Positions 19,218-36,887 of a stretch of DNA of 64,000 nucleotides are shown one piece after another (the stretch's first letter is position 1; each line of letters opens with the position of its first letter). The DNA comes from a virus. The stretch is taken from IMG/VR virus record IMGVR_UViG_3300009008_000003. The stretch is one strand, 5' to 3'. Both the position numbers and the translations under genes were made by a program. A model generated the notes under the pieces. The model ran no database searches, was not told where the DNA came from, and worked only from the letters and a program-made list of their open reading frames with translations.

Positions 19218-19220
19218 TAC

Positions 19221-20100: not shown

Positions 20101-20365
20101 CCATTTCCTTATCTGTTATTAATTTATTTGTGCTTTTTATACTTTTTATGTCTATCAGCGTTTCTGCGTAGACTATTAACTTTTCTCCTGGTGATACGAA
20201 ACCACTCTGAGCATATTCTAGTTTTTTTGTAGGTAAAGGAAAGATATTGATGAACCTGGATAACCCCTGCTCGTCATTGTAAATTTCTCCCATTAAACCT
20301 ATATAACTTATACCATAATCTGTGTAAATTGACACAGGGGTATCCTTTGAAAACATATAAATCAT
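20033..20365 (-). CDS. Hypothetical protein
   Basis: Intact ORF coupled to recU. Confidence 0.5.
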   Translation of the reverse strand: MIYMFSKDTPVSIYTDYGISYIGLMGEIYNDEQGLSRFINIFPLPTKKLEYAQSGFVSPGEKLIVYAETLIDIKSIKSTNKLITDKEMDERNEAIDKYDEQRDKSKTTQG

Positions 20366-20838
20366 TATAATAATCCTAAGTAATCTTCTAACGAAACTAA
20401 CCAGTCATCGTTGAATTCGTGTATTGGAATGCTTTTTCTTCCTTCATCATCGTAGGCTTTGTCCCAGTAATCGCATATAAGGCTCATAGGAGCCCTGTGA
20501 GCGTGTCTTTCATATAAACTGTAAAAGTGTACTAGAAAAAACCCATCGCCTCCTAGAGCGTCCCACAGGCGCAAAAATTCGACCTGGTGTTGCTTAAAGT
20601 AACTAAGCGGAAGAGACGTTTCAGATTTGCATTCTTTGGCGTCAAAGGCAATGGCTTTACCCCCGGATAAAACACCTATAAAATCCACTGTGCTCAACTG
20701 CGGAATCAAACCAGCTTTGGTTGGTACAATGGGTGTTTCTATCTTCTGGATCTGTGCTAATCGTTTCTTCCGGTATTCACGGTTGCACTTTTGTACTGCT
20801 TTTTCAAGCGTTTTACCTTTGGGGGTTTTTTTAGCCAT
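20365..20838 (-). CDS. recU: Holliday junction resolvase RecU
   Basis: STVDFIG, AIAFDAKE, F.QHQVEFL, GGDGFFLVHF. Confidence 0.9.
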   Translation of the reverse strand: MAKKTPKGKTLEKAVQKCNREYRKKRLAQIQKIETPIVPTKAGLIPQLSTVDFIGVLSGGKAIAFDAKECKSETSLPLSYFKQHQVEFLRLWDALGGDGFFLVHFYSLYERHAHRAPMSLICDYWDKAYDDEGRKSIPIHEFNDDWLVSLEDYLGLL

Positions 20839-21607
20839 TTTTATAAAATTTCCTAAAATCTCTTATTTTAATTAGTGGAGATTCTTCTATGAGTTTTGGG
20901 TGATTATTTGTGTACACAAATAGATCTCCATTGTCCGTTTTCATTCCGCCCTTAATGAACATATCGAAGTTATAGTTGTCTTCTAAATAAGAATCGAGCC
21001 ACTTTATTTTGTTTTTTTGTGGTGAATTATATTCTGTGCTCCAGAAATCCCTTTTCATGTACGGGTTCTGCAGCATGCTATAATGAAACATACCATGACC
21101 ATCGATGTGGTAAGGGTTTCGACCTGGCCAATTATTAGTAGGAGTAAATTTATGAGCGGTGTTTTCTATTCTCCATAATCTCATTCTATTGCTTTTTAGA
21201 TAGCGAGTCATATTAACGAAAAAGAACTTTTCGTTAGTTTCAATTGCGTTATATTTTCCTGATTCGATGATTTTCTTTATTCTTAAAATTTCATCATCAA
21301 AATAGAATTCGTCTGCGTCTAGTAACCATATCCAATTTCCTTCTTCATATAACTCACTATATTGCAGCATAGAATTCATAGTAGCTGCTTTTGTGGTACT
21401 ATGGTTATTTTTAAATACTACATCCACTAAAGACACCGGGTAGTTTTTGCATAAGTCCAATGTACCGTCTTCGAATTTTTCCAAAGAGATGCTATGCGCT
21501 CCCACAGATACTAACACTTCATCGCACATGCTAATGGCTTGTTTAAGAGCCACTTCGATCCAATGTTCACAGCCCCAGGCGGTCATTATACCAATTATTT
21601 TATTCAT
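20831..21607 (-). CDS. Glycosyltransferase family 2-like
   Basis: CDEVLVSVG, WIWLLDADEF. Confidence 0.7.
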   Translation of the reverse strand: MNKIIGIMTAWGCEHWIEVALKQAISMCDEVLVSVGAHSISLEKFEDGTLDLCKNYPVSLVDVVFKNNHSTTKAATMNSMLQYSELYEEGNWIWLLDADEFYFDDEILRIKKIIESGKYNAIETNEKFFFVNMTRYLKSNRMRLWRIENTAHKFTPTNNWPGRNPYHIDGHGMFHYSMLQNPYMKRDFWSTEYNSPQKNKIKWLDSYLEDNYNFDMFIKGGMKTDNGDLFVYTNNHPKLIEESPLIKIRDFRKFYKNG

Positions 21608-22382
21608 TTATTAGTAATTTTTTTATTTTTTCTTTATTTAAATTGAAATACACGTTATTAATTTTATCATAGGTGAAAGCTTCTTCTATCACTTTTTCGA
21701 TGTCTATAATATTTTTTAAATCTTTGATATCGTCTTGTTCAAACAGGTGATTGGTTGTTATCTGGGTTATGGGCTTTAGTTTCGAGATTAAAAAGCCTAA
21801 AGCAGCTCCGTGGCTAATTCCATAAAAACCTGTTATTGGGTAGGATAGCGCGTGTAATAGATTGGTACCTGTTATCTCTATGGCCCCGCCTGCTAAAATT
21901 CCAGCGCCTACAATAAGTATATTAGTAGGGTAACCGGTAAGAAGACTCATTGCATCGGTCGCTTGTATAGCGCTATGATTAGTGATATTTTTAGAAAGTA
22001 AGCTATCTATACAATGGGCTATTATATCAAATTTTGTATCCGCCCATACCTGATATGGTACAGTTTTTAAATAGTTTTCAATTATTTCTACTGTTTTTGG
22101 TCTGTGTCTTTTTATGCTATGTTTTCTATGTTTATCCCAGTACACCGCCCAGGAAGTAGAACTTGCGCCTGCTCCGGTAGTAGGGTAACAAGTGATGGGA
22201 TTCTTTGCCAATATTTTGGCGGTATCTATAACTGCCCCACCCCCGACAGCAACTACGTCTTCTTCGCTGTCAATCTCTGCCAAAAGAGAAATATCTGGAG
22301 CTTCTGTTACTATTCGTGCGCGGTCGTATTCAGGTAGTAAATCTCTGGTAGATTTAGAACATACGAGTAATGTATTATTCAT
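21600..22382 (-). CDS. Iron-type alcohol dehydrogenase, probable phosphonoacetaldehyde reductase
   Basis: VGGGAVIDTAK, PTTGAGASST, metal ligands D..H / H.L.Y / HG; directly downstream of Ppd. Confidence 0.8.
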   Translation of the reverse strand: MNNTLLVCSKSTRDLLPEYDRARIVTEAPDISLLAEIDSEEDVVAVGGGAVIDTAKILAKNPITCYPTTGAGASSTSWAVYWDKHRKHSIKRHRPKTVEIIENYLKTVPYQVWADTKFDIIAHCIDSLLSKNITNHSAIQATDAMSLLTGYPTNILIVGAGILAGGAIEITGTNLLHALSYPITGFYGISHGAALGFLISKLKPITQITTNHLFEQDDIKDLKNIIDIEKVIEEAFTYDKINNVYFNLNKEKIKKLLINE

Positions 22383-22839
22383 TTAATTCCCTTTTTATTA
22401 TTACAGCATTTGTGGCGCCTTCAAGAAGTACACGGGCTTTTTTGCCTTCTTTGTTTATTTTTATTATGGAAGTAATCCCAGGATAGGTTCCTTCTAAAGG
22501 AGCACATGCGTAGCCACCTACAGATTCATGGCACCCGTTATCTAGAATATATACAAACAAATTATCCGGAGCCTCGTCTCGTATCGTGTGGGTTATTCCT
22601 AAATGCATAAGCAGGGCGGCATCTCCGCTTATTACTACTACGGGCTTGTTTGTGTTGAGGGCCATACCCAAACCTATACAAGGAGCCAGTCCCATACTGC
22701 CCTGCATGTAGAATATGTTTTTGTTGTGCGGGTACTTATCGTACATCGCCCTTGATATATAGCCCGTGCTAGTGATGTAAATAGCTTTATCCCCGTGTGT
22801 AGAATAAATATGAGTTAATGCTCGATCTCTACTTAGCAT
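22375..22839 (-). CDS. ppd: Phosphonopyruvate decarboxylase, beta (TPP-binding) subunit
   Basis: STGYISR, FYMQGSMG, SGDAALLMHLG...DNGCHESVGG. Confidence 0.85.
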   Translation of the reverse strand: MLSRDRALTHIYSTHGDKAIYITSTGYISRAMYDKYPHNKNIFYMQGSMGLAPCIGLGMALNTNKPVVVISGDAALLMHLGITHTIRDEAPDNLFVYILDNGCHESVGGYACAPLEGTYPGITSIIKINKEGKKARVLLEGATNAVIIKRELNE

Positions 22840-23218
22840 TATTACTACCTTTCACAATAATGTAATTATCGTAATTAATTAGTGTAAGTAAGGACTCATC
22901 TACTTTGCCCATAACCGCATGCTGGGGGAGAGAATGTCGATGTCCGATTATTAGTAATGGTTTTATATTATGAGGTATACATAAGCTTGTTAGCGGGTTT
23001 ATTGTGTTGCCCAAGCCGGAATTTTGCAGGTATACGCAGCTTTTCTTCCCAGCCAACTCAGCCCCAAAAGCAATGCCTATGGCTTGTCCTTCATTAGCGG
23101 CTATTATGTGTTTTATTTCGCTGTCTATTATTTCGTCTATAAGAGGCTTTAGCCCGCTGTCCGGAACACCTACAAAGAAATTATAGCCCCTGTCAAGTAA
23201 ATGTTGTAATTTAATCAT
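22829..23218 (-). CDS. ppd: Phosphonopyruvate decarboxylase, alpha subunit
   Basis: [34 protein letters not shown]. Confidence 0.85.
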
Positions 23219-24494
23219 GAGGTATTAACTTTAATATTTCTTTAATTGGTAAGCAAAGATTATTAGCTTCCCAAGATCTTTTATGTTTTAGTATAGAAGT
23301 TGCTGTAGTTAGCATAGCGGGGTATGAGCTACGCAATAAATGATTAGCATATATAACTATATCTACGCCCATGCTAATTAGCTCTTCTTCAGTAATAGTG
23401 TTATAGGTAGAAGGGACTACTACTAAGGGTACTTTTATTTTAAGCTTCTTGTACTCGTTACAAAATGCTTGGATTTCATCGGGTTTGGGGCTCTTGCTGT
23501 GTATCATAATACCATCGGCTCCGGCCTTGATATAAGCTTTAGCTCTTTTTACGGCGTCTTTTAGTCCTTTGCCCAATATAAAACTTTCTATTCGAGCTAT
23601 TATCATAAAATCTTTTGTGATTAATGACTTTTTACCTTCTAGTATTTTATAGCTAAACTCTTTTATGGTATCTTGTTTCTGCGAAGACGTGTCGGCATGT
23701 AGAGAATTTCGTTTATTACCTATTTTATCTTCTATTATAACTGCGGAAACTCCTAGCCTTTCTAAGTGCCTAACAGTAAATTTAAAATGTTCTACAAGAC
23801 CTCCGTTGTCTGCATCTACTATCATAGGCTTTGTAGTTACGTTAAAGATTTCATTTAGGGTTTGATTGATGGTAGTTATATCTACATATTGGATATCTGG
23901 TTTACCTTTTGACGTAGAATGAGTTAAGCTGCTTAGCCACATTCCGTCAAATTCACTTCGTTCATGCTGTACCTTTTCGACTATTAGGCCAGTTAACCCG
24001 TTATGTACTTCTAATATTTTAACAATAGGCTTTGCTTCGATTAGTCTTTTAAGAGTTTTTATTCTGACATTGGGAGTTATGCCGAGGTCCTTTTCATAGT
24101 TTTGTAATTTTGTAGATGATATATCTGAGGTATATGGTACATCTATAACCTGGCCGCCCCATTCGCTTAGTTTGTCTATAACAGCTTGTCTGGTTTGTTT
24201 TTGTACTCCTTTTTTCCAATCATCTCCGTGTACGACATAATCTGGTTTTAATAGTTCTAAATTTGGTATATAATCCAGGGTAGTTTGCGGCACTACCTTA
24301 TCTATGCCTTTAATATTTTCTACTACTGTTTTGCGCTGCTCATAGTTCAGCACGGGTAGTCTTTTGTAGCTAGCAATAGCTGCGTCGGTTAGTAATCCTA
24401 TGGTAACACTGCCATGCTGCCTGGCTACTTTAATAATATTTAGGTGTCCGTGGTGTATTATATCCGCACACATCCCAATGTATACAGTTTTCAT
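23211..24494 (-). CDS. pepM: Cytidylyltransferase-phosphoenolpyruvate mutase fusion
   Basis: N-term HxGH (DIIHHGH) CTP-transferase; PepM-diagnostic EDK-X5-NS ([10 protein letters not shown]), D.DNGG, IARIES, VIYAN. Confidence 0.92.
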
Positions 24495-24495
24495 A

Positions 24496-25542
24496 TTAAT
24501 CTACATAATTTAAGTCGTGTTCTAATAAGTTATCTATAACGGCTAATATGCGGCTAGCGCAAGCTCTTCCAGTATAATCTATATATTTAGTAGTAACTCT
24601 TTTTCTTTCTTCTCTATAACCGTCATCAGTACTTGCCTTGTCAATGGCGGGTAACAAATCTTGAAATTCGCTTATAATTTTACCTGCACGGTCTTCTAGT
24701 TCCCAGGCTACTCCCCTTGCAGGAAGCGTTTTAGTTTTAAAGGGGGCAAGTCCTAGATGAATTACAGGTTTATCCATAAGATAGAAATAGCTATTAACGC
24801 TGGATAAATCGCCTATTAACATGTCTGAATATCTAAAATATGGAAACCCATAGCGGTCATCGTTTACATGATGTGCGTATACATTGTAAGCCTTAAAGAT
24901 ATCCTTGTACACAGATACCCAGTTTTTTGTGTATCTATGCGACTCGTGTAAACGTATTACAAAATTAGCGTCGTGTTTATTTACTACGTGATTACAAAGG
25001 ATTTCTACACGTTCCTTTTCTTTTCCGTCTTCCCACCAATCTACAAACAGACCTCTTTCTTGCTCTTGGTTCCACGTAGGCGCGTACAGAATAGTCTTTT
25101 TGTCTGGGGCTAGCCCCCGATCACTTAAGAATTGATTTTTAAGTGACACATCTTCATGCTTTAGCAAATCTATGGATAGAGGCATGCCAATTACTATTAC
25201 ATCATTATAACCTATTTTAGCATATTCTTTCTTCATATACTCGCCGTATACCAATAGGTATCTTTGGCATTTCTTTTCATTTTGTACCTGGGCTTTTTGA
25301 TCTTGATTTTTTAGCCAACCGATTCCGCCAAAACCATGGCCTACATGGAGTACTTTATTTACTGGGTAGGGACCAGGAGTTAGATGTGAGGTTATTATAA
25401 GATCTGCGCCTTCTCCTGACCCTTGCTTTTCTTTTGTCCTGACATCGTGCCAGGTTATTTTATATCTACTCGCTTCGCCCAATAGGTTTTTAATTGAATA
25501 TGCATCCCCCATTTTAGAGGCATAAAAGTGTATGTGTTTCAT
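24496..25542 (-). CDS. CDP-glycerol:glycerophosphotransferase (TagF/TagB)-like protein
   Basis: [34 protein letters not shown]. Confidence 0.8.
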
Positions 25543-26258
25543 AGCTTTATCTCATCTAAATCAGTTATAAAGTCAACATACCAATCTGGGTGATATCTTT
25601 TTTCCCAGTTAGGTTCTTTTGTAGAGTATATTTTTTTGCGCGACAGCCCCGCTACGTATACTATAAATCCTGGATGTCCAATAATTATTTTGGCATTATG
25701 AATTAGAGACATAGCCTGTGGTATTGAAGTAGTGTTCATGTAATTAAAGCAATTCTCTATATTAAACGCAGGCAAATCTCCGGGCTCGCATGTTCCAACT
25801 AGTCCTATTTTGTACTCTTTGTTATGTTTGTTTATAAAATTCTTAATAGAGTTTACGCTGAATCTTCGAGTACTATTTCTGCCTGCGTATGGAGAAATTA
25901 TTATGTCAATATCTGTTAATCCCTTATCATTGTTTTTCACATTTACTATGCTATCAACAAAAGGGTCTGTTTCCCAAGATATGGGGTCGCCTTCGCTTTC
26001 TGCTCGCCACCCCGGGCCTATCTGGTAATCAGCTATATTTGTATAATTTTCTATGTCTGCATCAGTAGTAACTGGAACAACTAAGTGATTTATTTCGTGA
26101 TACAGGTAAAAAGCATTTATAGCGGGCAGCAGTTTTAAAGGGCGCATTGTGTGCGTCAACAAAACGTCTTTCTTTTTGACCGGAGAATTTTTAGAGTATA
26201 ATTTTGCTACCATCATAGCCGCGTCTCCAAGACCTCCTCCTCCCCATATATTAGTCAT
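25539..26258 (-). CDS. Glycosyltransferase family 9-like
   Basis: GGLGD start; NYMNTTSIPQAMSLIHNAKIIIG. Confidence 0.6.
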   Translation of the reverse strand: MTNIWGGGGLGDAAMMVAKLYSKNSPVKKKDVLLTHTMRPLKLLPAINAFYLYHEINHLVVPVTTDADIENYTNIADYQIGPGWRAESEGDPISWETDPFVDSIVNVKNNDKGLTDIDIIISPYAGRNSTRRFSVNSIKNFINKHNKEYKIGLVGTCEPGDLPAFNIENCFNYMNTTSIPQAMSLIHNAKIIIGHPGFIVYVAGLSRKKIYSTKEPNWEKRYHPDWYVDFITDLDEIKL

Positions 26259-26926
26259 CTATCTCTCTTTTCTTTAGTACAATCATAGTGTCGAGTCTAT
26301 CTATCTGTGTATACAGTGAGAAGATAGATTCCCCAAAATCAACTTCACCTCTTGTTTTATTTCCGTATGATTTTCTGAAAAAATCGTCTATAAATAAGAT
26401 ACCACTATCGTTCATAAATTCGTGTACCTTATAAGCACAGAAAGTACGTGCGCGCCCGTCTATTAATATCTTGTCGAATATCTTTACTCCTAAATCGTTA
26501 ATTTTGTTGACATAATCTCTATATTGCCAATATCTACAAATTGATGAATATGGTCCCTCTTTGGCGTATGGGTATTGATTCAGTATATCATTATATTCTT
26601 TTTTTTGGTATTGTCCAAATTCCATGTACCTTTTCATCAAATATTTCTTCTAATTTATTACCCGGGTCTATTTCTTTGCTGTACGCCTCTCCGCCATAGT
26701 TAGGCGATACGAAGTAATAATGTATATTTTGGCGTTTGCTTGTTTCAGGTACTAATTTATTGTACCATTCTTTTTCGTGCTCTATTGAATAATACTGTTT
26801 TGACCAGTTTGAAAATTGTAAGGTGCTTCCACCAGATCCGTATTCTAGCATAATGTCTTCAGGGGTTAAGTAATTTTCTATTCCGTTTACCTGTGCTTTA
26901 GACATGAATACTTGCATCTGTATCAC
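26251..26926 (-). pseudogene. SAM-dependent methyltransferase split across two frames (26591..26926 and 26251..26640)
   Basis: 5' ORF has LEYGSGGST..SIEH; 3' ORF has FDKILIDGRAR...FIDDF; the two overlap in different frames. Confidence 0.6.
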
Positions 26927-27626
26927 CCCATATTTTTTTATAATCTATTTTCATTTGTTCGTATCTATTATTAATATCTTTATCAAATACACCTTTACCT
27001 GCGTAATGAATTATGTATGAAGAAAACCTATCTTCTTTATTATTCCAGGACTCAGAAAACATGGTCATATGATTCCACATATAGGACAACTCTTTGATTC
27101 TGAATCCCTGATTGTGTATTTGATAGCCCAGTAGGGAACAGTCATAACCAGTGTTAAGCCACCATTCCCCATTTATTGGCTTAAAGATATTTCTATGCAT
27201 TTTTGAGGTCAAAAAAGTCCCAACGTTTGGGTAGCCATCGTGCCAATTTACTGACCCAAATTTGTTTTGAATATCGGTAATACGTCGTTTTCTATCTTCT
27301 TTTCTACTGCCAACATCTTCGTAAATTACGCCTATTTTATCTACTGGTACAAAGTCGAACGGGTTAGGACATTTATTTGTTATAATCATATCCGAGTCTA
27401 GATAAAGTACCCTATCGTAATGTTCATACAGATCATATATGTTTAATATCCTATAATGGTCTGTGTTGGCGTAGCCTGCCCCGTGTCTTTTACAACATTC
27501 CGACGGGTTCGATATCACTTCAAAATCTGCGTTCCACAAAGCTGCAAATTTTTTGAATAACGGATGCGTTATATCCGTAATAGGCTTTATAAATTCATCT
27601 GCTTGAGTAGTTACCAATAGCTTCAT
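26898..27626 (-). CDS. Glycosyltransferase family 8-like
   Basis: YDRVLYLDSDM, NVGTF, WNHM, IIHYAG. Confidence 0.75.
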   Translation of the reverse strand: MKLLVTTQADEFIKPITDITHPLFKKFAALWNADFEVISNPSECCKRHGAGYANTDHYRILNIYDLYEHYDRVLYLDSDMIITNKCPNPFDFVPVDKIGVIYEDVGSRKEDRKRRITDIQNKFGSVNWHDGYPNVGTFLTSKMHRNIFKPINGEWWLNTGYDCSLLGYQIHNQGFRIKELSYMWNHMTMFSESWNNKEDRFSSYIIHYAGKGVFDKDINNRYEQMKIDYKKIWGDTDASIHV

Positions 27627-28543
27627 ACTAGGTGAGGTTTTACATTATTTATAATATGAGTTATCTCGTCGTCACTTAGCTTCTCGTTGAACGGAATGCT
27701 TAGTGTTTGTTTTTCTGCTATTTCTGATTTCTCCAGAACGGTGTTCTGGGCGTAAACTGGGTGTTTGTGTAAGCATTTATAATGAAGACCGGTAGCGATA
27801 TCTCTGCTGTGCAGGTTTTTGCTGATTGTTTCATTATTTACTACATTAATTCTGTATAAATGGTTACTAGTATTATTACAACCGAAATTATAATTATAAT
27901 GTATTCTAATATCTTTTAACTTTTTTAATTTTAATTCATAGGTTCTAAAATTATTGAGTATAACAACGGCCTGGACACTATTCATGTACATTTTCCAGCC
28001 GGGGAATTTTATATCCCTGTTCCACGAATTATGACCAGTACCCATGCCGTTGAAAACAGCCTCTCTAAACCAGTTAATTTTTTCTTTATCATTGCTAACC
28101 ACGAGTCCTCCGTCTATACCGGCAAGCGGCTTAGTCGGGTAAAAGCTAAAGATCATTAGGTCGTGTGCGTTAGCTTCCTGGGCAAATTGATTGTGTTCTA
28201 GCTTTTGAGCAGAGTCTATTATTTTATAGTCTCCGAAATTGTGAAGTGTGTAGGATCCTCCTACCCAATTTATATCATCTATAAAATTGACTTTGTTACC
28301 GGAAGTTATTATGGCGTTGGCTACTACCGGCGGCAGTAAGGACGGGGCATTTATAACTAAATCTTTATTTCTTACCAAGGCTAAGAAAATAGCGCTCGTA
28401 GCACTGTTTACAGCGCAAGCATATTTAGCCCCCACGTATCGTGCCAACAGGGTTTCAACTAACCCTACTCTCGGATCGTGAAGCATGTGCGAAAACGAGC
28501 TAGTGTCTATTATATGATTTTCTATATGAAATAGCTTTATCAT
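27623..28543 (-). CDS. DegT/DnrJ/EryC1 sugar aminotransferase
   Basis: AVNSATSAI, IIDSAQ, FSFYPTKPL..DGG. Confidence 0.85.
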   Translation of the reverse strand: MIKLFHIENHIIDTSSFSHMLHDPRVGLVETLLARYVGAKYACAVNSATSAIFLALVRNKDLVINAPSLLPPVVANAIITSGNKVNFIDDINWVGGSYTLHNFGDYKIIDSAQKLEHNQFAQEANAHDLMIFSFYPTKPLAGIDGGLVVSNDKEKINWFREAVFNGMGTGHNSWNRDIKFPGWKMYMNSVQAVVILNNFRTYELKLKKLKDIRIHYNYNFGCNNTSNHLYRINVVNNETISKNLHSRDIATGLHYKCLHKHPVYAQNTVLEKSEIAEKQTLSIPFNEKLSDDEITHIINNVKPHLV

Positions 28544-29292
28544 TTTCTGTAAATTTCTAAATATTTTATCGTATCACCTGACCCCCATTGGGGTATCTTG
28601 TCGACTAGTGTTAGCCCGAGTTCTTGTAAAACGATGCATAGATTATCATGATACTTAGCATTGGTATCCAAGGCTAATTTATAGTTATTGATGAATCTAG
28701 CGGTTAGTAGCAATATCCCATCGTTGTTTAAAGCATCAAATAAAAGATTAATTGTAGATATTAAATTAGGAACATGCTGCAGCACCTCAAAGCAGGTGAT
28801 GGCGTCATATTGTTCTAGTTTAGGTGATTCCCCAAATTCTATATCAATAGTATGTATGTCTAAATTTCTATTTGTAAACCGCCATTTTGCGAAATCAAAA
28901 GTTAGTCCTGGTATATCACAAGCACAGGCAGTTAGGCCCGCTTCGTTTTGTTTGATGCTGTCTTGCCCTATACCACACCCAAAATCTAATACGGTTTTAC
29001 AGTTATTTTCTATCAGCAGGTTCACACAACTTTGGACTAGACGTTTTTTCTTTTCGCCCGAATGATATTCTATACATTCTGGTATATAGTTTTCAGTGGT
29101 GCTATAAAAATTATATATTGATTTTAAATCGGAAGTGGATACAGTGTCTAGCCATTCTTTTTCAGTCAAATGCTGCCATTTAGTATAACCTTTATAATAG
29201 TTGTCTATTTTTTTAAAGCATTTTTCTAGATCATCTTCTGGTATCTTTAAAAATTTAGCAGCCTCTTGTAATAATTCATTATCTATTAGCAT
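28540..29292 (-). CDS. Class I SAM-dependent methyltransferase
   Basis: VLDFGCGIG, YDAITCFEVLQHV, L...GIL. Confidence 0.85.
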   Translation of the reverse strand: MLIDNELLQEAAKFLKIPEDDLEKCFKKIDNYYKGYTKWQHLTEKEWLDTVSTSDLKSIYNFYSTTENYIPECIEYHSGEKKKRLVQSCVNLLIENNCKTVLDFGCGIGQDSIKQNEAGLTACACDIPGLTFDFAKWRFTNRNLDIHTIDIEFGESPKLEQYDAITCFEVLQHVPNLISTINLLFDALNNDGILLLTARFINNYKLALDTNAKYHDNLCIVLQELGLTLVDKIPQWGSGDTIKYLEIYRK

Positions 29293-29665
29293 TTTTTATC
29301 CTTATGAATTCATCTTTATTTAGGATATAATCATTTATATCATACTCAGTCGAGCATATGGATAAGAGTACATCATTGCCGGTATGAAAAATTTGGGAAT
29401 CCCATATTAATTTATCTAAAAAGAAGCTATCCCCGGATTTTAGGAATTTGGAAACAGTATTTATGCCATCGAAGGCTATAACTTCTATAACACCTTGGAC
29501 GCATATTAACACTTGTTGGGTGTTATAATGCGCGTGGTTTCCTCTTTCCTGGCCCTGTGGCACGTTGTAAATATAGAAAAGTCTTTTAGGTATAAATGGT
29601 AAAGTTAATAAATTTACGGGCACTAAAGTGCCGTCAGCCGCTTCGAATTTATTTAGTGGTTTCAT
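29279..29665 (-). CDS. FdtA/QdtA-like cupin sugar 3,4-ketoisomerase
   Basis: F.PKRLFYIYNVP...ERG.HAH...Q.LIC.QG. Confidence 0.9.
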   Translation of the reverse strand: MKPLNKFEAADGTLVPVNLLTLPFIPKRLFYIYNVPQGQERGNHAHYNTQQVLICVQGVIEVIAFDGINTVSKFLKSGDSFFLDKLIWDSQIFHTGNDVLLSICSTEYDINDYILNKDEFIRIKNANR

Positions 29666-30626
29666 AATGATTTTTCCAAAAATCTATCATTTCATCTAAT
29701 AAGGTTTCGAACGTATATTCAGGCACCCAATTAAAAGTTTTATTAAATTTTGTTGAATCGCCTTTTAAATATTTAAGTTCTTCCGGTCTAATGTGTTTGG
29801 GGTCTTGTATTACATAGTCCTCATAATTTAATCCTACTTTTGTAAATACGTACTCACAGAGATCTCTAATAGAGAAAGCTTGCCCGGTGGCCACTACAAA
29901 GTCATCTGGAATACTATGTAACATTATTAAATTCATGGCTTTTACATAATCTTTTGCATGTCCCCAATCTCTGCAAGAGTCTAAATTGCCCAATTCTAAT
30001 TTATCTTGTAACCCTTTTCGTATTCTAACTGCTGCCTTCACGATTTTATTTGTAACAAAGTTTGAACCCCTTCTCGGAGATTCGTGATTAAATAGTATAC
30101 CATTGCATGCAAATAGTTTGTACGCATTTCTATAGTGCTTTACTAAACTATAAGAAAAAAGTTTGGCACAGCCATAAGGGCTTGTCGGGCTCATGGGTGT
30201 ATTTTCATTTTGAAATCCGTTTGGATTAATATTGTTACCAAACATTTCTGATGATGATGCTTGGTAAAATTTCGCTCTAGGTGAATGGTTGCGGTAGGCT
30301 TCCAGTATATTTAAAGTACCCAATGCGTCTGTTTTTACCGTAAATTGTGGTATTTCAAAACTTATTCTTACGTGGCTTTGTGCGGCAAGGTTATATATTT
30401 CACTTGGTTGTATGGTCTTTATTAATCGATTTAATGCCGATTCGTCTAAAAGGTCGCAATAGTCCGTGTTAATTTTACCATTTAGATGCGAGATGCGTGT
30501 TTTCTGATGTTCCGGCGTGGAATTTCTCCTAAGTGTTCCATAAACCTCATATCCCTTATCCAATAAAAATTCAGAAAGGTAGCTCCCGTCTTGTCCAGCA
30601 ATACCAGTTATAAATGCTTTTTTCAT
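29649..30626 (-). CDS. gmd: GDP-mannose 4,6-dehydratase
   Basis: ITGIAGQDGSYL, YNLAAQSHV, YQASSSEMFG, SPYGCAK, RDWGHAKDYV. Confidence 0.95.
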   Translation of the reverse strand: MKKAFITGIAGQDGSYLSEFLLDKGYEVYGTLRRNSTPEHQKTRISHLNGKINTDYCDLLDESALNRLIKTIQPSEIYNLAAQSHVRISFEIPQFTVKTDALGTLNILEAYRNHSPRAKFYQASSSEMFGNNINPNGFQNENTPMSPTSPYGCAKLFSYSLVKHYRNAYKLFACNGILFNHESPRRGSNFVTNKIVKAAVRIRKGLQDKLELGNLDSCRDWGHAKDYVKAMNLIMLHSIPDDFVVATGQAFSIRDLCEYVFTKVGLNYEDYVIQDPKHIRPEELKYLKGDSTKFNKTFNWVPEYTFETLLDEMIDFWKNHYETTK

Positions 30627-31582
30627 TTAATTATACCCTCCCCCCTGCTTTTTAAAAAAGCTACCCAAGCCATCTTTATCCCATCTTCCAATGAAATAGA
30701 TGCTTTCCAACCTAGCGATGTTAACCTACTAACGTCTAAATGTTTTCTGGGAGTACCGTCCGGTTTGGAGTCGTCCCAGACAATTTCACCCGTGTGACCG
30801 GCGATGCGCTGGATCAGCTCAGCCAGTTCACGAATGGTGATATCGCTGCCGGTGCCGACATTAAGCGGCAGGCTGTCGGAGTAGTTTTCCATCAGGAAGA
30901 GACAGGCATCTGCCAGATCGTCCACGTGCAGGAATTCCCGGTAGGGAGAACCGCTGCCCCAGAGGGTGACCGGCTGCTGGCCGGCTTCCACGGCCAGGTA
31001 AAACCTGTGCAGCATCGCCGGCAGCACGTGTGAACTTTCAAGGTCGAAGTTGTCGCCGGGACCGTAAAGGTTGGTCGGCATAGCGGCGATGAAGTTTTTA
31101 TTATACTGTTCGCGGTAAGCCTGAACCCCCTGTATACCAGCGATTTTAGCTAAAGCATAACTACGATTAGTTTCTTCTAGCGGGCCTGTCATTAAAGCTT
31201 CTTCTTGTATAGGTTGTTTAGCTAGCCGTGGATAAATACAGGAACTACCTAAAAATAGTAATTTTTTAACATTTGTATCGTGGGCCGCCCGCATAACATT
31301 AATTTGAATCAGTAGGTTTTGTTCCAAAAATTCTACAGGAAATGTAGAATTAGCTAGTATTCCTCCAACTTTAGCGGCCGCTAGAAAAACATATTCTGGC
31401 AGTTCTGTTTCAAATAAATTCCTTACTTGTTTTAAACAGGTAAGGTCATAATCAGTTCTTTTTGGTGTAACTAAATTTTCATATCCGTTCCGTTTTAGGG
31501 CGCGTACTATAGAAGATCCCACCATACCGGAGCAACCTGCTATATAAATTTTACTTTTTTTATCCATATTTAATCGTTCCAA
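30623..31582 (-). CDS. fcl: GDP-L-fucose synthase
   Basis: AGCSGMVGS, AAAKVGGI, LGSSCIYP, YALAKIAG, PTNLYGP.DNF, REFLHVDDLA, DGTPRK. Confidence 0.95.
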   Translation of the reverse strand: MERLNMDKKSKIYIAGCSGMVGSSIVRALKRNGYENLVTPKRTDYDLTCLKQVRNLFETELPEYVFLAAAKVGGILANSTFPVEFLEQNLLIQINVMRAAHDTNVKKLLFLGSSCIYPRLAKQPIQEEALMTGPLEETNRSYALAKIAGIQGVQAYREQYNKNFIAAMPTNLYGPGDNFDLESSHVLPAMLHRFYLAVEAGQQPVTLWGSGSPYREFLHVDDLADACLFLMENYSDSLPLNVGTGSDITIRELAELIQRIAGHTGEIVWDDSKPDGTPRKHLDVSRLTSLGWKASISLEDGIKMAWVAFLKSRGEGIIK

Positions 31583-32163
31583 ACTGTCACACCAATTACG
31601 GGATAATCAGTTTTTACTATTTCTTCTTCTATAATATTGTTAAAATACGGCTTTATAAAGTGTTTAATAGTTTCGATGGTATACCCCCACTTATGTGTAT
31701 TATATTCATTTTTATAAGAGCCATAAATAAGCCTGATAGCCCAATCAGCGGAAGATATAGTTCTTTCGGTATCAATTAATGCCAATGATTTCTCAAGGTC
31801 AGGAAAATTAAAATGAAATTTGCATTTCGGCTTTAGGATGATTTTAAGTTGATTTAAAATGCTTTCAGCTTCTTTTTTAGTAAAATGCTCGAAAGACGAT
31901 AGCATTAAAGCGTAATCCGCGCTATTTTCTTGGTAATGTTCTGAAAGATTTCTTACATCAACAAATTTATCTGCTATGCATTTTTTTATTGGGTTTTGTC
32001 CCAATGGGTATTGGTAATATTTTTCTACAGTGGTTTGGTTAATATTTTTTATATCGGGGCGCTCTTCTGCTAGGAACGAATAGCCCGGTATATTTAAATC
32101 AAGATTATGGTAATTTTTAAGATAAACTTCTCCACAGCACAGATGCAGTTTTATAAGTTCCAT
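31570..32163 (-). CDS. Methyltransferase-like protein
   Basis: LHLCCG, FEHF, LKP...F.FPDL. Confidence 0.65.
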   Translation of the reverse strand: MELIKLHLCCGEVYLKNYHNLDLNIPGYSFLAEERPDIKNINQTTVEKYYQYPLGQNPIKKCIADKFVDVRNLSEHYQENSADYALMLSSFEHFTKKEAESILNQLKIILKPKCKFHFNFPDLEKSLALIDTERTISSADWAIRLIYGSYKNEYNTHKWGYTIETIKHFIKPYFNNIIEEEIVKTDYPVIGVTVWND

Positions 32164-32174
32164 ACAACCTCTTT

Positions 32175-32912
32175 CTAGGGGATTAAATTTTCTTTTCTCA
32201 TATCGTTTTTTATGGACTCATCCAGATAACCATGTGCTTTGGTAGGAATCCAATGAAACCCACAATACTTATAGCTATAAGAGTGGGGGTTTGCATTACG
32301 ACCTCCTATCCCGTTTCCGGATTTAATAGCATGATTTCTTTTTGTTCCTAATATTTTGAATCCATCGTTTCTTGAGGTCTCGGTGCCCTCATGTTCGAAT
32401 TTCCAAGGATTTCGTCCTTTCATATATTTCATCATATATTCTCTATTCCATATAGAACCCTGCAAAGAAATACGATGTAAACAGCTCGGCCCAAGCTCTA
32501 TTATATCAAAATCCTTATACTCTTCAACGATTGTATGACCATCAGTATTTTCTGCATCTATTCCCAACACTATTCTACCAATTTTGTTATCAGTTTGTAT
32601 CTTACTTTTCAAGACATTAAGTATATGGTTATTTGTTGGGGGGTATACCCATAGGTCTTCCATAAACATAATAAAATGTTCATCATCTATCGAATCAAGG
32701 TAATTATATAGATCGTTTCCCCAATTTTGTACACCTGTTTGTTTGCCGAGTGATACAAACTTAAAGTTATCTGGTAAGTAGAAATTTGGCGAACTAAAGC
32801 CTAATATGGTTACTTCGGGAATTGGGGTTTCCGGCCAAAATCTATTGAATAGGTAGTAAAATGGTTTTATCGCGTCTATATGATTATCTGAGGTAGTTAC
32901 GTATATTTTCAT
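32175..32912 (-). CDS. Putative glycosyltransferase (paralog A)
   Basis: YVTTSD, ILGF, F.SLGK...W, FMED; similar to the next ORF. Confidence 0.55.
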   Translation of the reverse strand: MKIYVTTSDNHIDAIKPFYYLFNRFWPETPIPEVTILGFSSPNFYLPDNFKFVSLGKQTGVQNWGNDLYNYLDSIDDEHFIMFMEDLWVYPPTNNHILNVLKSKIQTDNKIGRIVLGIDAENTDGHTIVEEYKDFDIIELGPSCLHRISLQGSIWNREYMMKYMKGRNPWKFEHEGTETSRNDGFKILGTKRNHAIKSGNGIGGRNANPHSYSYKYCGFHWIPTKAHGYLDESIKNDMRKENLIP

Positions 32913-33646
32913 AATTTTTTTCCTATAAACCTGTTACCTGGAATCCAGCCTTTTTCTGGGAATAAATTTCTAACTTCTATTGCAGCTTTATGAACGTGTT
33001 TATCTATGGCCTTTCCTGCAGTAGTGGCATCTGCCATAGGTATAATTTCTTCAGTTTTATGGAAAAATATTTTCCATTTTTTCTGCTTACTGGCGGCTAG
33101 TGTTCCAGATTGTTCTTGTTCTAGATAATCCCAACCGTCCTTTATTATATCGAAATAAAAATCCTTTTTCCATAAAGAGGGTTGGTTAGATCCTGGTATC
33201 AGACAAGTTCCGTGATTACAGCTTTTATTCCATAGCCAAAAATCGTTGACACCTTCCAAGCCCTTTTTGTCTATATTAAAACCCAACCACACTTTTCCAG
33301 TATCAGGCTTATTTATTAAATCTAAAGCTTCGTTTAAGAGGTCTTTTTTAACATCTTTTGTTATAAAATGTTTTACTAAAAGCATCAATATAATATCATC
33401 GTCTATGCGGCTTAGTGCTTTTTTTACAGAGGTTGAATAATTGTACCGCGTTGACTTTTTATCGGCGGAAATATAATTGATATTTGTATCTAAAAATTTT
33501 GGGGTATCCCCGTAGCCAAGTATATTAAGAGGCCCATGACCTGGCCAATATTTTTTTAGTAATATTAAAAATGATGGTATTAATTCATTATAACCATCGG
33601 AACTAATAGCCAATATCTGCATGTATACCCAATACTTTCTTTGCAA
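32909..33646 (-). CDS. Putative glycosyltransferase (paralog B)
   Basis: ISSD.Y, KKYWP, ILGY, QPSLWKKD parallels paralog A. Confidence 0.55.
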   Translation of the reverse strand: MQRKYWVYMQILAISSDGYNELIPSFLILLKKYWPGHGPLNILGYGDTPKFLDTNINYISADKKSTRYNYSTSVKKALSRIDDDIILMLLVKHFITKDVKKDLLNEALDLINKPDTGKVWLGFNIDKKGLEGVNDFWLWNKSCNHGTCLIPGSNQPSLWKKDFYFDIIKDGWDYLEQEQSGTLAASKQKKWKIFFHKTEEIIPMADATTAGKAIDKHVHKAAIEVRNLFPEKGWIPGNRFIGKKL

Positions 33647-34466
33647 AATGATTCCAACTAAATTTTTGTACAGTTTTTAAACCTTGTGCTGCTATGGCTT
33701 TTCTTTTATCTTCGTGCTCAAGGTAATAATCTATTTTGTTTTTTAAATCTTTTGAGCTGTTAAAAATAACTAGATCTTTGCCATCCTCGAAAGCTGTTTC
33801 TCGTAAAGGCCAATCATTGGTCATTACGAAGCCACTGGAGGCCATTAGCTTATAAATCCTTGTTGATGTGCCCTCGTGTTTAACAATAAAGTTAAGATTT
33901 ATTTTACTACGACTAACAGTTTTAGCATGTTCTGTGCCGTACGTTCCTGTTATGTTTGTAAATCCAATATCTTTATGCCACTGTTGTCTGTCTCCGTACA
34001 GAGCACCTATAAAGGACACATCTATGTCTTGTGCTAAATCATATGGCTTATCTATGAGAGGATCAAATCCTTGATCTAGATAAAATGAATTCTTATTCAC
34101 TGTTAATGATTTTTCGTAAGGAACGGTTAACCCATGACAAGCAAAAGTGGCATAACGAACCTTTAGTTCAAGATCGCTATCCCAATTATGCATAGGATCC
34201 ATATACCATATACATGTTTTTGAGATCTTATTACATTCTATTACTACCCGTGCAGATACTGTGTTACATTTACAAAAAAGAACGAGGTCCGGTTTTTCTT
34301 TTTTAGTTAATTCTATTATTTCTTCATCCCGTTTACCTGCTCCTACTTTGCCTGCACGCTCCCTATAACTATAACGTATTGTTTCACAATCTGCGTTATC
34401 AAACCCGTTTGCAATGGGGACACTGGTGGAGAATTCTGTAAATACCCCTATAACTAGTACTTTCAT
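33603..34466 (-). CDS. Glycosyltransferase, CgeB/GT1-like
   Basis: DVSFIG, SKINLNF, RIYKLMASSGF..T, FEDGKDLVIF...IA..G. Confidence 0.8.
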   Translation of the reverse strand: MKVLVIGVFTEFSTSVPIANGFDNADCETIRYSYRERAGKVGAGKRDEEIIELTKKEKPDLVLFCKCNTVSARVVIECNKISKTCIWYMDPMHNWDSDLELKVRYATFACHGLTVPYEKSLTVNKNSFYLDQGFDPLIDKPYDLAQDIDVSFIGALYGDRQQWHKDIGFTNITGTYGTEHAKTVSRSKINLNFIVKHEGTSTRIYKLMASSGFVMTNDWPLRETAFEDGKDLVIFNSSKDLKNKIDYYLEHEDKRKAIAAQGLKTVQKFSWNHFAKKVLGIHADIGY

Positions 34467-35278
34467 TTTAATTCTTTCATAACCATATCAAGTGATATTT
34501 CATTTAGATTTTCTGCTGCAAATATAGTAGCATTCTCTGCATATATGCTTATATCATTTTTTTCCCAGCGGTTGAAACCCTCGCCCCCAACCAACGCAAT
34601 TTGCGGTACACCCTGTGCTGCTGCGATGTGCATAGGTCCAGTATCGTTACTTATGAATAGATCGCACTGTGCAATAGCAGATACCAATTCTTCCGGTTTT
34701 AGCAGATTCCAAAAATCATAGTATACGTTTAGTACGTGTTGGTCATATATTGAACCAAAACCAGCTGTTAGTTTGTTTTGTAACTTTAGTTTTGTGGCTA
34801 GTGCTTGGTAATTTTTCCATTTTTTACCTTCCCACAAAGGGCCGGGGTTGCACCCAGCGTGTATACCTACTACGCCACGATTTTCAAACCAAGGTCCAGC
34901 CCCATAGATCGGGGCAATGAAAGGATGTTTGTGCTTATTAAGCTCTTCTTCCTCTATACCTATATTTTTTGCTAGATACAAATTTGATAACAACTCGTGA
35001 GAATGCATTCTTCTGTCGTATAGGTTACCAAATTTTATATCTGTTATCCATACATTTTCTCCCCACCAGGTGTTAAAGATGTAGTCATAGCTATCTTCTA
35101 GTTCGCCATTTATTTTATTTACATAATCTGGGTGATTGAATACGTTATCCCATCCAGGAAAATTGCATTTGAAATAAAAGTGTGTATCGTGTCCAGCGGC
35201 TTTTAGCGCTCGTACTAATGGAGTTGCCATTATTATATTACCAACCCCCTGGCCGGCAACTATTAAACTATTCGGCAT
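34463..35278 (-). CDS. Glycosyltransferase family 9 (heptosyltransferase-like)
   Basis: QGVGNIIMATP, GIHAG...KKW, CDLFISNDTGPMHIAAA.GVP.IAL.G. Confidence 0.9.
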   Translation of the reverse strand: MPNSLIVAGQGVGNIIMATPLVRALKAAGHDTHFYFKCNFPGWDNVFNHPDYVNKINGELEDSYDYIFNTWWGENVWITDIKFGNLYDRRMHSHELLSNLYLAKNIGIEEEELNKHKHPFIAPIYGAGPWFENRGVVGIHAGCNPGPLWEGKKWKNYQALATKLKLQNKLTAGFGSIYDQHVLNVYYDFWNLLKPEELVSAIAQCDLFISNDTGPMHIAAAQGVPQIALVGGEGFNRWEKNDISIYAENATIFAAENLNEISLDMVMKELK

Positions 35279-35954
35279 TGAATATCCCCATTGCGTTTGA
35301 GTTTTCTCCTATAAAATCTTTTGCACGATCATGATAGTTCTGTCTTGCCCATACTCCTTCTTCGCCTATATGGTCTACGATTGAGGGTAAAGTGCAGATT
35401 AAGGGATCACCATACTTTTTTACGTCTGTTGTAAGTGACCAATCCCATTCGCGAGCATTGCGCAAACCCCCGACGCTTTTATAAAAATCTGTTCCTATTA
35501 ACAGATTAGCCCCGCCGATGGATGCCTTTACTCCCACATAGTTGCACTCTTCCAATACATCGTGCTGATTAGTGCGAGTATCAAAGCCTGTTATTACTGG
35601 GTATCCATGCATATTAAATATTTTATCTAATGCTTGTGCCCAGTTTTTTGAGTACAACATATCAGAATCTGATATTAAAAAGTACGGGCATTCTTCTAAT
35701 ATCTTACCTTTTCTTAGTATCATATTGATACGCATAACCTTACAAAATGGGATACCGATATGTTTTTCTTCTAGCAGTGTCCAGCTGTATCGCTTGCACA
35801 AGGATCTTACTTTGGTTAATAGAAGTTCTTCTGATCCATCATCTATAATTATTACTTCTACATCATCCGGTAATGCAGACTTTGCTAAGCTTTGTAAGCT
35901 TCTTAATGTTATTTCATCTCTATTATAAGTGGTTACATATAAGGGTTTTTTCAT
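35268..35954 (-). CDS. Glycosyltransferase family 2
   Basis: TYNR, IIIDDGS, ISDSDM, VDHIG. Confidence 0.85.
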   Translation of the reverse strand: MKKPLYVTTYNRDEITLRSLQSLAKSALPDDVEVIIIDDGSEELLLTKVRSLCKRYSWTLLEEKHIGIPFCKVMRINMILRKGKILEECPYFLISDSDMLYSKNWAQALDKIFNMHGYPVITGFDTRTNQHDVLEECNYVGVKASIGGANLLIGTDFYKSVGGLRNAREWDWSLTTDVKKYGDPLICTLPSIVDHIGEEGVWARQNYHDRAKDFIGENSNAMGIFNAE

Positions 35955-36655: not shown

Positions 36656-36704
36656 TCTTTTCTTTCCAAAATTGTCAATCCATTATTATGTTTGAATTCT
36701 TCCT

Positions 36705-36887
36705 TCACAAACCAGTGTTCATTTTTTTAGGAGATCCAGCTAAAAGCGCCCAAGTTGAATTAAGATCTCTTACCCCCATCTCTGTAATATGGTCACATTC
36801 TTTCGAATATTTAAATATAATTGGGAGTAGTTGATTTATATCTGTTGTTTTTGCGCAGGCTTTTTCATAGTTGCTATGTATTGTCAC
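36705..36887 (-). pseudogene. Truncated N-terminus of a methyltransferase
   Basis: DINQLLP...ECDHITEMGVR..NSTWALL resembles a viral SAM-methyltransferase N-terminus; stops after 60 aa. Confidence 0.5.

Follow-up and report, generated by a model that had tools for sequence, protein, structure and literature searches.

A chain of five reverse-strand genes in the 64,000-nucleotide stretch of DNA analyzed here (the window; IMG/VR record IMGVR_UViG_3300009008_000003) likely constitutes a phage-owned auxiliary pathway for 2-hydroxyethylphosphonate (HEP) that works during infection. The chain runs from 25542 to 21600, with four junctions at which genes overlap by 4-11 nt and one with a 1-nt gap, and encodes in order a TagF-like phosphotransferase, a fusion of a Fom1-type cytidylyltransferase to PEP mutase (PepM), the alpha and beta halves of a phosphonopyruvate decarboxylase (Ppd), and a miniature Fe-dependent alcohol dehydrogenase (Fe-ADH). 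The identity of each enzyme of the module is backed by sequence or structure tests, and each is apparently intact. The source of the contig is a large uncultured marine phage.

The fusion gene (23211..24494, reverse strand) encodes 427 aa, with the cytidylyltransferase at residues 1-135 and the PEP mutase at residues 146-427. Both domains were detected with Pfam (CTP_transf_like, 4e-15; PEP_mutase, 5e-54), and the protein scored 374 bits on the NCBIfam PEP_mutase equivalog TIGR02320, above the cut-off of 319.6. The EDK-X5-NS motif named in the original prediction of this fusion was found in the PepM domain, and the best PDB matches of the C-domain were the PEP mutases 1M1B and 5UNC. In the N-domain, HxGH was invariant in the alignment, and a gap-free alignment to the solved HEP cytidylyltransferase domain of the biochemically characterized Fom1 (5X3D; E 3.5e-55) supports the prediction that HEP is activated with CMP.

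The decarboxylase is divided between two genes, as originally predicted. The alpha half (22829..23218, reverse strand; 129 aa) contains the TPP pyrimidine-binding domain (Pfam TPP_enzyme_N, 4e-8), and the beta half (22375..22839, reverse strand; 154 aa) contains the TPP diphosphate-binding domain (TPP_enzyme_C, 4e-8) and a GDA-X25-DN motif that can be read in its translation. Both halves scored higher as Ppd than as ComDE: on NCBIfam, the alpha half reached 117 bits with TIGR03297 versus 71 with sulfopyruvate decarboxylase alpha, and the beta half 100 versus 85 with sulfopyruvate decarboxylase beta. The split is kept in 29 of 33 viral copies.

The last gene of the chain (21600..22382, reverse strand) encodes a 260-aa predicted phosphonoacetaldehyde reductase. 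The assignment to Fe-ADH held for the fold and for an invariant D/H/H/H site but not for a normal size, the protein being a miniature compared with the usual ~375 aa and lacking ~110 residues of the normal enzyme. It matched Pfam ADH_Fe_C at 30 bits (cut-off, 27), and its best NCBIfam family was the phosphonate-linked Fe-ADH TIGR03405 at 60 bits, far under the curated cut-off for any Fe-ADH equivalog (60 versus 424 bits). The AlphaFold2 (AF2) model (pLDDT 95.4, pTM 0.92) retrieved Fe-ADHs with Foldseek at TMq ~0.8, including a sulfoacetaldehyde reductase. All metal ligands are retained, and 18 viral copies share GGG47-49, D119, H123, H177, and H191 without exception; it is from conserved motifs of this kind that cofactor binding is assumed. 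Within a 1.84-billion-protein library, the miniature enzyme forms a distinct short family.

The first gene of the chain (24496..25542, reverse strand) encodes a 348-aa protein whose prediction as a TagF-like transferase was borne out by Pfam Glyphos_transf (9.3e-19) and by a predicted TagF/TarL fold: the top matches of the AF2 model (pLDDT 82) were TagF 3L7I-M, TarL 8VA1, and the capsule polymerase 8A0M. No sequence match to solved TagF was detectable, and the catalytic histidines could not be aligned by sequence. Eight homologues were found in all, and a PF01467 cytidylyltransferase gene lay directly downstream in the four of four contexts seen. TagF-like genes also adjoin the HEP operons of some cellular loci (L007, L009, and L081).

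The module lies within a one-directional glycan island of 17 kb (20831..37923, reverse strand). By Pfam, the island encodes three GT9-like, two GT2, one GT8, one GT1-like, and one rhamnosyltransferase-like protein, together with a 4,6-dehydratase, an epimerase/reductase, an FdtA 3,4-ketoisomerase, a DegT aminotransferase, and methyltransferases. One methyltransferase is frameshifted, so some decay is possible. The interval 25539-26258 of the island has an Atlas match.

Established enzymology (Fom1, Fom2, and FomC; TagF) makes the route from PEP to CMP-HEP as the product likely, and the original inference of these steps was upheld in that each enzyme assignment is supported by profile, motif, alignment, or fold tests. 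The PEP mutase domain would convert host PEP to phosphonopyruvate, and the two-subunit Ppd would decarboxylate this to phosphonoacetaldehyde, thereby drawing forward the unfavorable mutase equilibrium. The miniature Fe-ADH would then reduce phosphonoacetaldehyde to HEP, from which the Fom1-type N-domain would form CMP-HEP with CTP. TagF and TarL perform a like transfer from CDP-glycerol and CDP-ribitol; the TagF-like enzyme would most likely move the hydroxyethylphosphonyl group from CMP-HEP to a sugar hydroxyl with release of CMP, a role that its gene linkage favors slightly over other functions. The acceptor would be an oligosaccharide made by the neighboring glycosyltransferases and amino-deoxysugar enzymes; gene linkage tentatively suggests that such a glycan would sit on a soluble target, for example virion proteins.

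Several lines of evidence bear on whether the module belongs to the phage. The chain runs on, each time by an 8-nt overlap, into a GT2-like gene (21607-20831, reverse strand) and then into the gene for the RecU Holliday-junction resolvase (20365..20838, reverse strand; Pfam RecU, 4.7e-29), the first core phage gene downstream of the island, whose start overlaps the last island gene. This confirms the predicted stop-to-start chain to recU. The low GC noted as common to module and phage was also found: GC is uniform at 0.35-0.40, and GC3 is 0.33 in the module versus 0.31 in the remaining genome. The contig further encodes a fused RNA polymerase, sheath, baseplate, fiber, DNA polymerase, and ligases. 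In a 53%-diverged relative (136.6 kb), independently assembled from other samples, the order TagF-PepM-Ppd-ADH-...-RecU is kept, with the module between a matching GT block and a RecU-dUTPase block. The phage genes, the matching GC3, and this conserved arrangement make host contamination unlikely and agree with the view that the genes are integral to the phage.

A search for viral pepM-ppd synteny, as had been proposed, recovered the compact four-gene module in ~30 IMG/VR contigs, and it is also present in many marine metagenome contigs. Phages that have little else in common, just a few genes at 22-37% identity, share the module at 58-70%, and no other gene set is nearly as well conserved between these otherwise unrelated phages. 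In the PepM tree, 18 of 26 viral PepMs and two metagenome copies form one clade, and the window's copy falls within an all-viral subclade (98*); the suggested phylogeny thus places most viral copies in a clade of their own. We count the recurrence, the identity, and the clade as signs of selection. Viral Ppd measures 129+157 aa versus 375 aa in cells, and viral ADH 261 aa versus 372 aa. None of the other ~30 viral modules includes the TagF-like gene; conserved unknown genes flank them on each side instead. Elsewhere in IMG/VR the TagF-like gene is generally absent too; it is specific to the lineage of the window's phage and cannot be a universal partner of the module.

That absence is also an argument for a different, unlikely but still serious reading, in which the TagF-like enzyme takes a host CDP-alditol donor unrelated to phosphonate and some other, unrecognized island protein attaches HEP; in keeping with it, some TagF-like relatives accompany stand-alone cytidylyltransferases with PepM absent. 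However, no glycerol-3-phosphate or ribitol-5-phosphate cytidylyltransferase is encoded near the TagF-like gene, and the only cytidylyltransferase domain adjoining it, both in the window's phage and in the 53%-diverged relative, is the Fom1-type domain. Joining of cellular to phage DNA by misassembly or misbinning is highly improbable. The window is a metagenome-derived linear contig (CheckV 74%), and the contigs bridging the island junctions come from runs that are possibly its own source; nevertheless, phage genes flank the island on both sides of one contig, the stop-to-start overlaps extend to RecU, GC3 matches, the independently assembled relative has the same arrangement, and the split Ppd and miniature ADH are of the viral and not the cellular form.

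It is very improbable that the module yields a small-molecule phosphonate in free form (an antimetabolite or a compound resembling fosfomycin), in which case CMP-HEP would be a transient intermediate, as it is in Streptomyces, and no glycan would be decorated. The CMP-HEP of Fom1 is such an intermediate in fosfomycin biosynthesis (PMC6697681), and in the 53%-diverged relative a B12-binding radical-SAM gene lies two positions upstream of PepM, with another radical-SAM gene following ADH, an arrangement that recalls Fom3. The window, however, contains no radical-SAM gene, epoxidase, CMP-phosphonate hydrolase, or exporter, the island encodes no predicted membrane protein, and the module sits amid at least eight glycosyltransferases and adjoins the TagF-fold transferase. 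A different end product, 2-aminoethylphosphonate (AEP) or methylphosphonate, with the short ADH-like protein having another or no catalytic role, is decidedly improbable. Marine microbes make methylphosphonate from HEP, and the ADH scores far under its family cut-offs, but its metal ligands are invariant in the 18 viral copies. MpnS and HepD are ~450 aa, whereas the island contains no unannotated ORF above 245 aa. AEP is the commonest biogenic phosphonate, found in 56% of neighborhoods (PMC8942020); no AEP-type transaminase is present, the sole aminotransferase being the DegT-family sugar enzyme, and the cytidylyltransferase is of the HEP-specific Fom1 type and not the AEP-specific PF12804 PntC type (PMC6697681).

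What is new includes a recurring compact viral module for the predicted synthesis of HEP, most of whose viral PepMs form a clade of their own and whose viral Ppd and ADH are consistently smaller than the cellular ones. The early fosfomycin pathway of Streptomyces wedmorensis (Fom1 cytidylyltransferase-PEP mutase, Fom2 Ppd, and FomC Fe-ADH) shares the domain fusion and the predicted chemistry from PEP through phosphonopyruvate, phosphonoacetaldehyde, and HEP to CMP-HEP. Unlike it, the phage-encoded module has Ppd in two short subunits and an ADH 30% shorter, lacks Fom3, Fom4, and FomD, and sits in a glycan island next to a TagF-like transferase; CMP-HEP therefore probably serves as a donor and not as a transient intermediate. 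With the TagF and TarL teichoic acid polymerases and TagF-like capsule polymerases, the TagF-like protein shares the PF04464 family, a GT-B-like fold, and, by analogy, a would-be donor chemistry in which CMP leaves and a P-centered group passes to a hydroxyl. It differs in its length of 348 aa, in lacking a membrane-targeting N-domain, and in its predicted donor, the phosphonate anhydride CMP-HEP; we know of no characterized TagF-family example with such a donor.

Cellular CT-PepM/Ppd/Fe-ADH cassettes that lie in loci for surface glycans (Pelagibacteraceae, Prochlorococcus, Bacteroidales, DPANN archaea, and others) share with the phage module the gene order, the fusion, a setting among sugar-modifying genes, and a marine habitat. 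Their order of CT-PepM, then Ppd, then ADH is common to ~60 cellular genomes of many phyla, with PepMs at 48-67% identity. In these cassettes Ppd is single (~375 aa) and ADH is ~372 aa, whereas the viral copies are split or shrunken and most viral PepMs form a separate clade. Phosphonoglycoproteins have been described in Prochlorococcus and SAR11 (Acker et al. 2022, PMC8931226). In the Pnt pathway, Ppm-PntC fusions occur with an AEP transaminase and LicD-type transferases (Rice et al. 2019, PMC6697681, which also cites the formation of CMP-HEP by Fom1). There too a phosphonate is made, activated with CMP by a Ppm-fused nucleotidyltransferase, and transferred to a surface glycan, as predicted for the phage; however, PntC is an AEP-specific PF12804 enzyme and the phage has a PF01467 Fom1-type domain, with an ADH in place of the transaminase and a TagF-like in place of a LicD-like transferase.

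No paper describing an HEP module in any phage was found in the published literature. This, and the report that neither the RefSeq viruses nor 364 huge phages yielded a Ppm (Li & Horsman 2022, PMC8942020), agrees with the original statement that characterized phosphonoglycan pathways are not known from phages. The same study found an AEP pathway on one NCLDV giant-virus metagenome contig, where a virus-encoded PepM beside sugar genes was likewise read as a viral phosphonoglycan system. That single contig belongs to a eukaryotic giant virus and carries a Ppm-Ppd fusion and the AEP branch, whereas the window belongs to a tailed phage and carries the HEP branch, in a module found in ~30 viral contigs.

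Open reading frame (ORF) calls and Pfam searches placed all five genes of the proposed phosphonate pathway on the minus strand, at the coordinates given in the original prediction. They encode a TagF-like transferase of 348 aa (25542-24496; Glyphos_transf), a cytidylyltransferase-PEP mutase fusion (CT-PepM) of 427 aa (24494-23211; CTP_transf_like and PEP_mutase), the alpha half (PpdA; 129 aa, 23218-22829; TPP_enzyme_N) and beta half (PpdB; 154 aa, 22839-22375; TPP_enzyme_C) of a phosphonopyruvate decarboxylase (Ppd), and a mini Fe-ADH of 260 aa (22382-21600; ADH_Fe_C). Start and stop codons in this chain overlap by 4-11 nt at four junctions and are separated by a 1-nt gap at one. Past the mini ADH, the chain continues into a GT2-like gene and then RecU. 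The module is enclosed by a 17-kb island of glycosyltransferases and amino-deoxysugar enzymes (20831-37923, minus strand).

The PEP mutase domain carries the EDK-X5-NS active-site motif in its translation, and residues E255, D256, K257, N263 and S264 were invariant among 15 aligned CT-PepM fusions. The protein scored 374.4 bits on TIGR02320, the NCBIfam PEP mutase equivalog (cut-off 319.55); the sister models for phosphonopyruvate hydrolase and methylisocitrate lyase gave 143 and 103 bits, respectively, both far under their own cut-offs. Thus, the claim of a PepM with the diagnostic motif was borne out by motif and model alike, and the methylisocitrate lyase score argues against the isocitrate/methylisocitrate lyase activity that had been named as the alternative. 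Conversion of PEP to phosphonopyruvate is the predicted activity of this domain. Fused N-terminal to it, a PF01467 domain (CTP_transf_like, 3.8e-15) spans residues 9-130, with H14, G16 and H17 of its HxGH motif invariant in the aligned fusions. Residues 3-132 gave a gap-free alignment with the structurally solved cytidylyltransferase domain of Fom1 (5X3D; E 3.5e-55, 189 bits), the Streptomyces wedmorensis fosfomycin enzyme shown to produce CMP-2-hydroxyethylphosphonate (CMP-HEP; cited in PMC6697681). The next PDB family, ethanolamine-phosphate cytidylyltransferase, matched at 1e-15. From this likeness to Fom1, a preference for HEP and CTP is predicted.

Both halves of the decarboxylase scored higher on the NCBIfam models for phosphonopyruvate decarboxylase than on those for sulfopyruvate decarboxylase (117 versus 71 bits for the alpha half and 100 versus 85 bits for the beta half), supporting the proposed split Ppd over a sulfopyruvate-specific ComD/ComE pair. 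The whole-protein Ppd cut-off of 312.5 was reached neither by either half nor by their sum (217), since each half is short. On our motif reading of the translations, the beta half contains the GDA-X25-DN thiamine-diphosphate motif and the alpha half contains the cofactor-activating Glu43 (NEG). The Ppd genes lie directly downstream of PepM with overlapping codons, and their products share 39-50% identity with the Ppd encoded after CT-PepM at 71 cellular loci.

The mini ADH is the weakest member of the enzyme set. Its best NCBIfam family was the phosphonate Fe-ADH family TIGR03405, on which it scored 59.7 bits, under the cut-off of 423.7, and it has about 110 residues fewer than cellular members. 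Because of this score and length, it was assigned to a distinct mini family outside the equivalog, which probably acts like PhpC/FomC. The Fe-ADH assignment therefore stood as to fold, metal site and GGG motif, but not as to membership of TIGR03405. Residues D119, H123, H177 and H191 of the metal site and G47-G49 of the GGG motif were invariant in 18 viral mini ADHs, and the AlphaFold (AF2) model (pLDDT 95.4) matched Fe-ADHs over both domains by Foldseek (E 1e-15, TMq ~0.8). One of these matches was a sulfoacetaldehyde reductase, which acts on the sulfonate counterpart of phosphonoacetaldehyde. A short-ADH profile matched about 70 cluster representatives end to end at 290 aa or less; below these, the matches were full-length Fe-ADHs with N-terminal extensions. 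One viral mini ADH (10096-10860 of comparison stretch L107) has an internal stop codon that ends the ORF at 10497, and the PepM and Ppd of this module look intact; the stop is possibly a sign of a decaying module or a sequencing error.

Compared with their cellular counterparts, the viral enzymes are short. Cellular Ppd is a single ORF with a median of 375 aa (n = 68), whereas viral Ppd is split in 29 of 33 cases, with medians of 129 and 157 aa; the median ADH is 372 aa in cells (n = 56) and 261 aa in viruses (n = 29). Stop codons bound the short viral forms of both. Three GT9 (heptosyltransferase)-like proteins of the island (25539-26258, 34463-35278 and 37108-37923) are only 239-271 aa long, where bacterial GT9 heptosyltransferases have about 340 aa, and only atlas and structure searches revealed the first of them as GT9-like. 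Shortening seems to extend across the island rather than stop at the phosphonate enzymes.

The genes had been described as integral to the phage, with a shared low GC, rather than as a host insertion. The window is the middle of a 139.8-kb IMG/VR contig that encodes a sheath, baseplate wedge, collagen-like tail fibre, DNA polymerase, helicase, two ligases, RNA ligase, NAMPT and a fused RNA polymerase (RNAP) beta/beta', and virion and phage replication genes flank the island on both sides of this contig. The RNAP is a single 2034-aa ORF matching beta and beta' of multisubunit RNA polymerase (G000 C1 5158-11262, L089), and by this protein the nearest cultured relatives are the marine Vibrio phages D69, D181 and D148, at ~28% identity. 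Consistent with phage ownership, the module does not differ from the rest of the genome in GC or GC3. Further, a 136.6-kb contig from other samples, which bears the closest TagF-like homologue (53%; the P0126 relative), has a GT block, TagF-like gene, CT-PepM, PpdA, PpdB and mini ADH, followed by RecU and dUTPase. This independent, diverged synteny argues strongly against a chimera, and host contamination was rejected on the phage genes on both sides, the same GC3 and the same gene order in the diverged relative. Logan contigs of two marine metagenome runs from one study covered 18001-29971 without difference, a result given little weight because both runs may be the source of the window; the bridging contigs break within a conserved 4,6-dehydratase gene (29971-30240), not at the island borders. 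Scans of the island for sigma-70 promoters and terminators gave chance-level results only, which says little since the phage encodes its own RNA polymerase. A Pfam scan of 17034-19217, 16305-17012 and 19221-19652 returned no family.

Numerous proteins 72-77% identical to the CT-PepM fusion were present in marine metagenomes, including Tara Oceans, and the contexts that were opened held the same four genes, at the same sizes, within further sugar islands of equally tight packing. In IMG/VR, a profile scan corresponding to the viral-database search for pepM-ppd synteny that had been suggested recovered about 30 contigs with the full module. In three large contigs (96-138 kb, GC 31-42%) the module was 58-70% identical to that of the window, and only a handful of other genes were common with this phage, at 22-37% identity; two of the three carry either baseplate, DNA polymerase and RNR genes or a head protease. 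A fourth module contig has a T4-type capsid gene. Searches of five further large viral contigs that bear the module recovered neither the RNAP nor the tail sheath of this phage. A search for psbA was likewise negative in large viral contigs with the module, which thus bear no cyanophage signature. In a PepM tree of 103 rows, 26 of them viral, 18 of the viral rows and two metagenome rows formed one clade, separate from the Pelagibacteraceae clade and from Prochlorococcus, and the window fell in a group of 12 viral or metagenome rows with support of 98. Since a few viral rows lie elsewhere in the tree, acquisition may have occurred more than once. Comparison of the island DNA with 50,697 phage records gave no match, and in the same collection the fusion protein matched no cultured phage, its sole hits being two short faecal contigs labelled 'Bacteriophage sp.' (50-53%).

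Established Fom1/Fom2/FomC enzymology and the sequence and structure tests described here suggest a pathway in which PEP would be rearranged to phosphonopyruvate, which would be decarboxylated to phosphonoacetaldehyde, reduced to HEP and activated to CMP-HEP. A methylphosphonate or 2-aminoethylphosphonate (AEP) branch was rejected on the absence of an AEP-type transaminase and of any unannotated island ORF of MpnS or HepD size, together with the Fom1-type cytidylyltransferase. Collectively, these data indicate that the HEP/CMP-HEP module is real, phage-owned and probably functional. In a fifth step, the phosphonyl group would be moved to an acceptor, and gene linkage makes the TagF-like enzyme the candidate transferase: in four of four known contexts its gene lies directly upstream of a PF01467 cytidylyltransferase (two PepM-fused, two stand-alone), and TagF-like genes flank three cellular HEP operons. 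However, other viral modules have no TagF-like gene, so different phages must use different transferases. The protein scored 68 bits on PF04464 (Glyphos_transf; cut-off 22.1), and the closest folds to its AlphaFold model (pLDDT 82) were TagF, TarL and a TagF-like Cps polymerase domain (TMq 0.62-0.71), all of them enzymes that take CDP-linked donors and set CMP free. Against PDB chains, sequence and profile searches with the family did not match TagF, which was linked by the fold search alone; H199 and H262 are invariant in the nine-member family, and sequence searches gave no residue-level alignment to TagF His444/His584. Only eight relatives occur among 5.8 billion proteins, the closest at 53%, and none was found in IMG/VR. 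In related marine contigs, the product of the gene preceding PepM (L093 8899-10035) was rejected as a homologue for lack of similarity to the TagF-like protein. Two relatives (L165 1-12188 and L164 2935-5143) are flanked by a methyltransferase on one side and a stand-alone PF01467 cytidylyltransferase on the other, and PepM is absent. The former stretch is a fragment of a phage that also encodes portal, S78 protease and a 5-hydroxymethyluracil DNA kinase (HMUDK_hel); thus, a TagF-like/cytidylyltransferase pair is also present in a phage with probable thymidine hypermodification. Enzymes attaching HEP to sugars have long been missing, and the TagF-like gene is a concrete candidate for this class.

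No membrane span was predicted in the island proteins, and the island contained no flippase, polymerase or polyprenyl-phosphate transferase. These absences would suit a soluble acceptor (virion proteins, for example) or enzymes that act peripherally on lipid-linked intermediates of the host. Three large proteins encoded beside the tail sheath gene, just past window position 1 (L092), show a threefold Ser-Gly excess: a 1995-aa protein at G000 C1 125507-131494 (SG/GS 61/19, expected 18) and proteins at 122823-125504 (25/4, expected 7) and 132238-135696 (24/6, expected 8). They are possible glycosylation targets, but a PHROG scan assigned them to no family, leaving them only a lead as acceptors. 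On the strength of this Ser-Gly excess and the absence of membrane-bound island proteins, we tentatively propose, as a rather unlikely reading, that unrelated marine phages exchange a miniaturised C-P module and place HEP on glycans of their own virions.

PF01467-Ppm fusions account for 23.6% of bacterial Ppm (PMC6697681) and HEP-branch neighbourhoods are already known (PMC8942020), so the HEP chemistry is not new. Li and Horsman scanned RefSeq viruses and 364 huge phages and found no Ppm, with one giant-virus contig carrying an AEP pathway (PMC8942020), and a 2026 paper on viral phosphorus genes covers degradation genes only. In agreement with the statement that no characterised phage pathway was known, literature searches found no paper on a phage-encoded PepM. 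New relative to the known pathway are the phage carrier, the shrunken and split enzymes and the TagF-like partner. Phosphonates account for a substantial part of the dissolved organic phosphorus in the sea, and methane release in oxic seawater is tied to their degradation; phosphatase-resistant phosphonoglycans make up much of the high-molecular-weight fraction and feed aerobic methane production. The phosphonate producers known to date are cellular, SAR11, Prochlorococcus and Thaumarchaeota among them. A phage-owned, recurrent and selected module would add viruses to these producers, or would redirect infected cells towards phosphonate synthesis. It would also give phages a new surface chemistry, C-P-tagged glycans, which could affect adsorption, superinfection exclusion, phosphatase resistance or grazer recognition. 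If HEP is indeed placed on virion glycans, phosphonoglycans would have a direct viral source that has so far gone uncounted, and these half-size proteins would rank as the smallest functional Ppd and Fe-ADH. With 283 aa in two chains for Ppd and 260 aa for Fe-ADH, the module would also offer scaffolds, minimised by nature, for enzymology and pathway engineering.

Also in the island, a class I SAM-methyltransferase-like gene (26251-26926, minus strand) is divided into two overlapping frames of 111 and 129 aa at an A8 run (~26597-26604). Its homologue in another comparison stretch (L005 14677-15297) is one ORF, and the A8 length was the same in contigs of two runs; the split may mark a pseudogene or a slippage switch, or else reflect a shared assembly error. 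The window has no radical-SAM gene of the kind seen in the P0126 relative, where a B12-binding radical-SAM gene precedes CT-PepM by two genes and another radical-SAM gene immediately follows the mini ADH. These genes recall Fom3, which methylates CMP-HEP, and by this analogy that phage may attach a methylated phosphonate.
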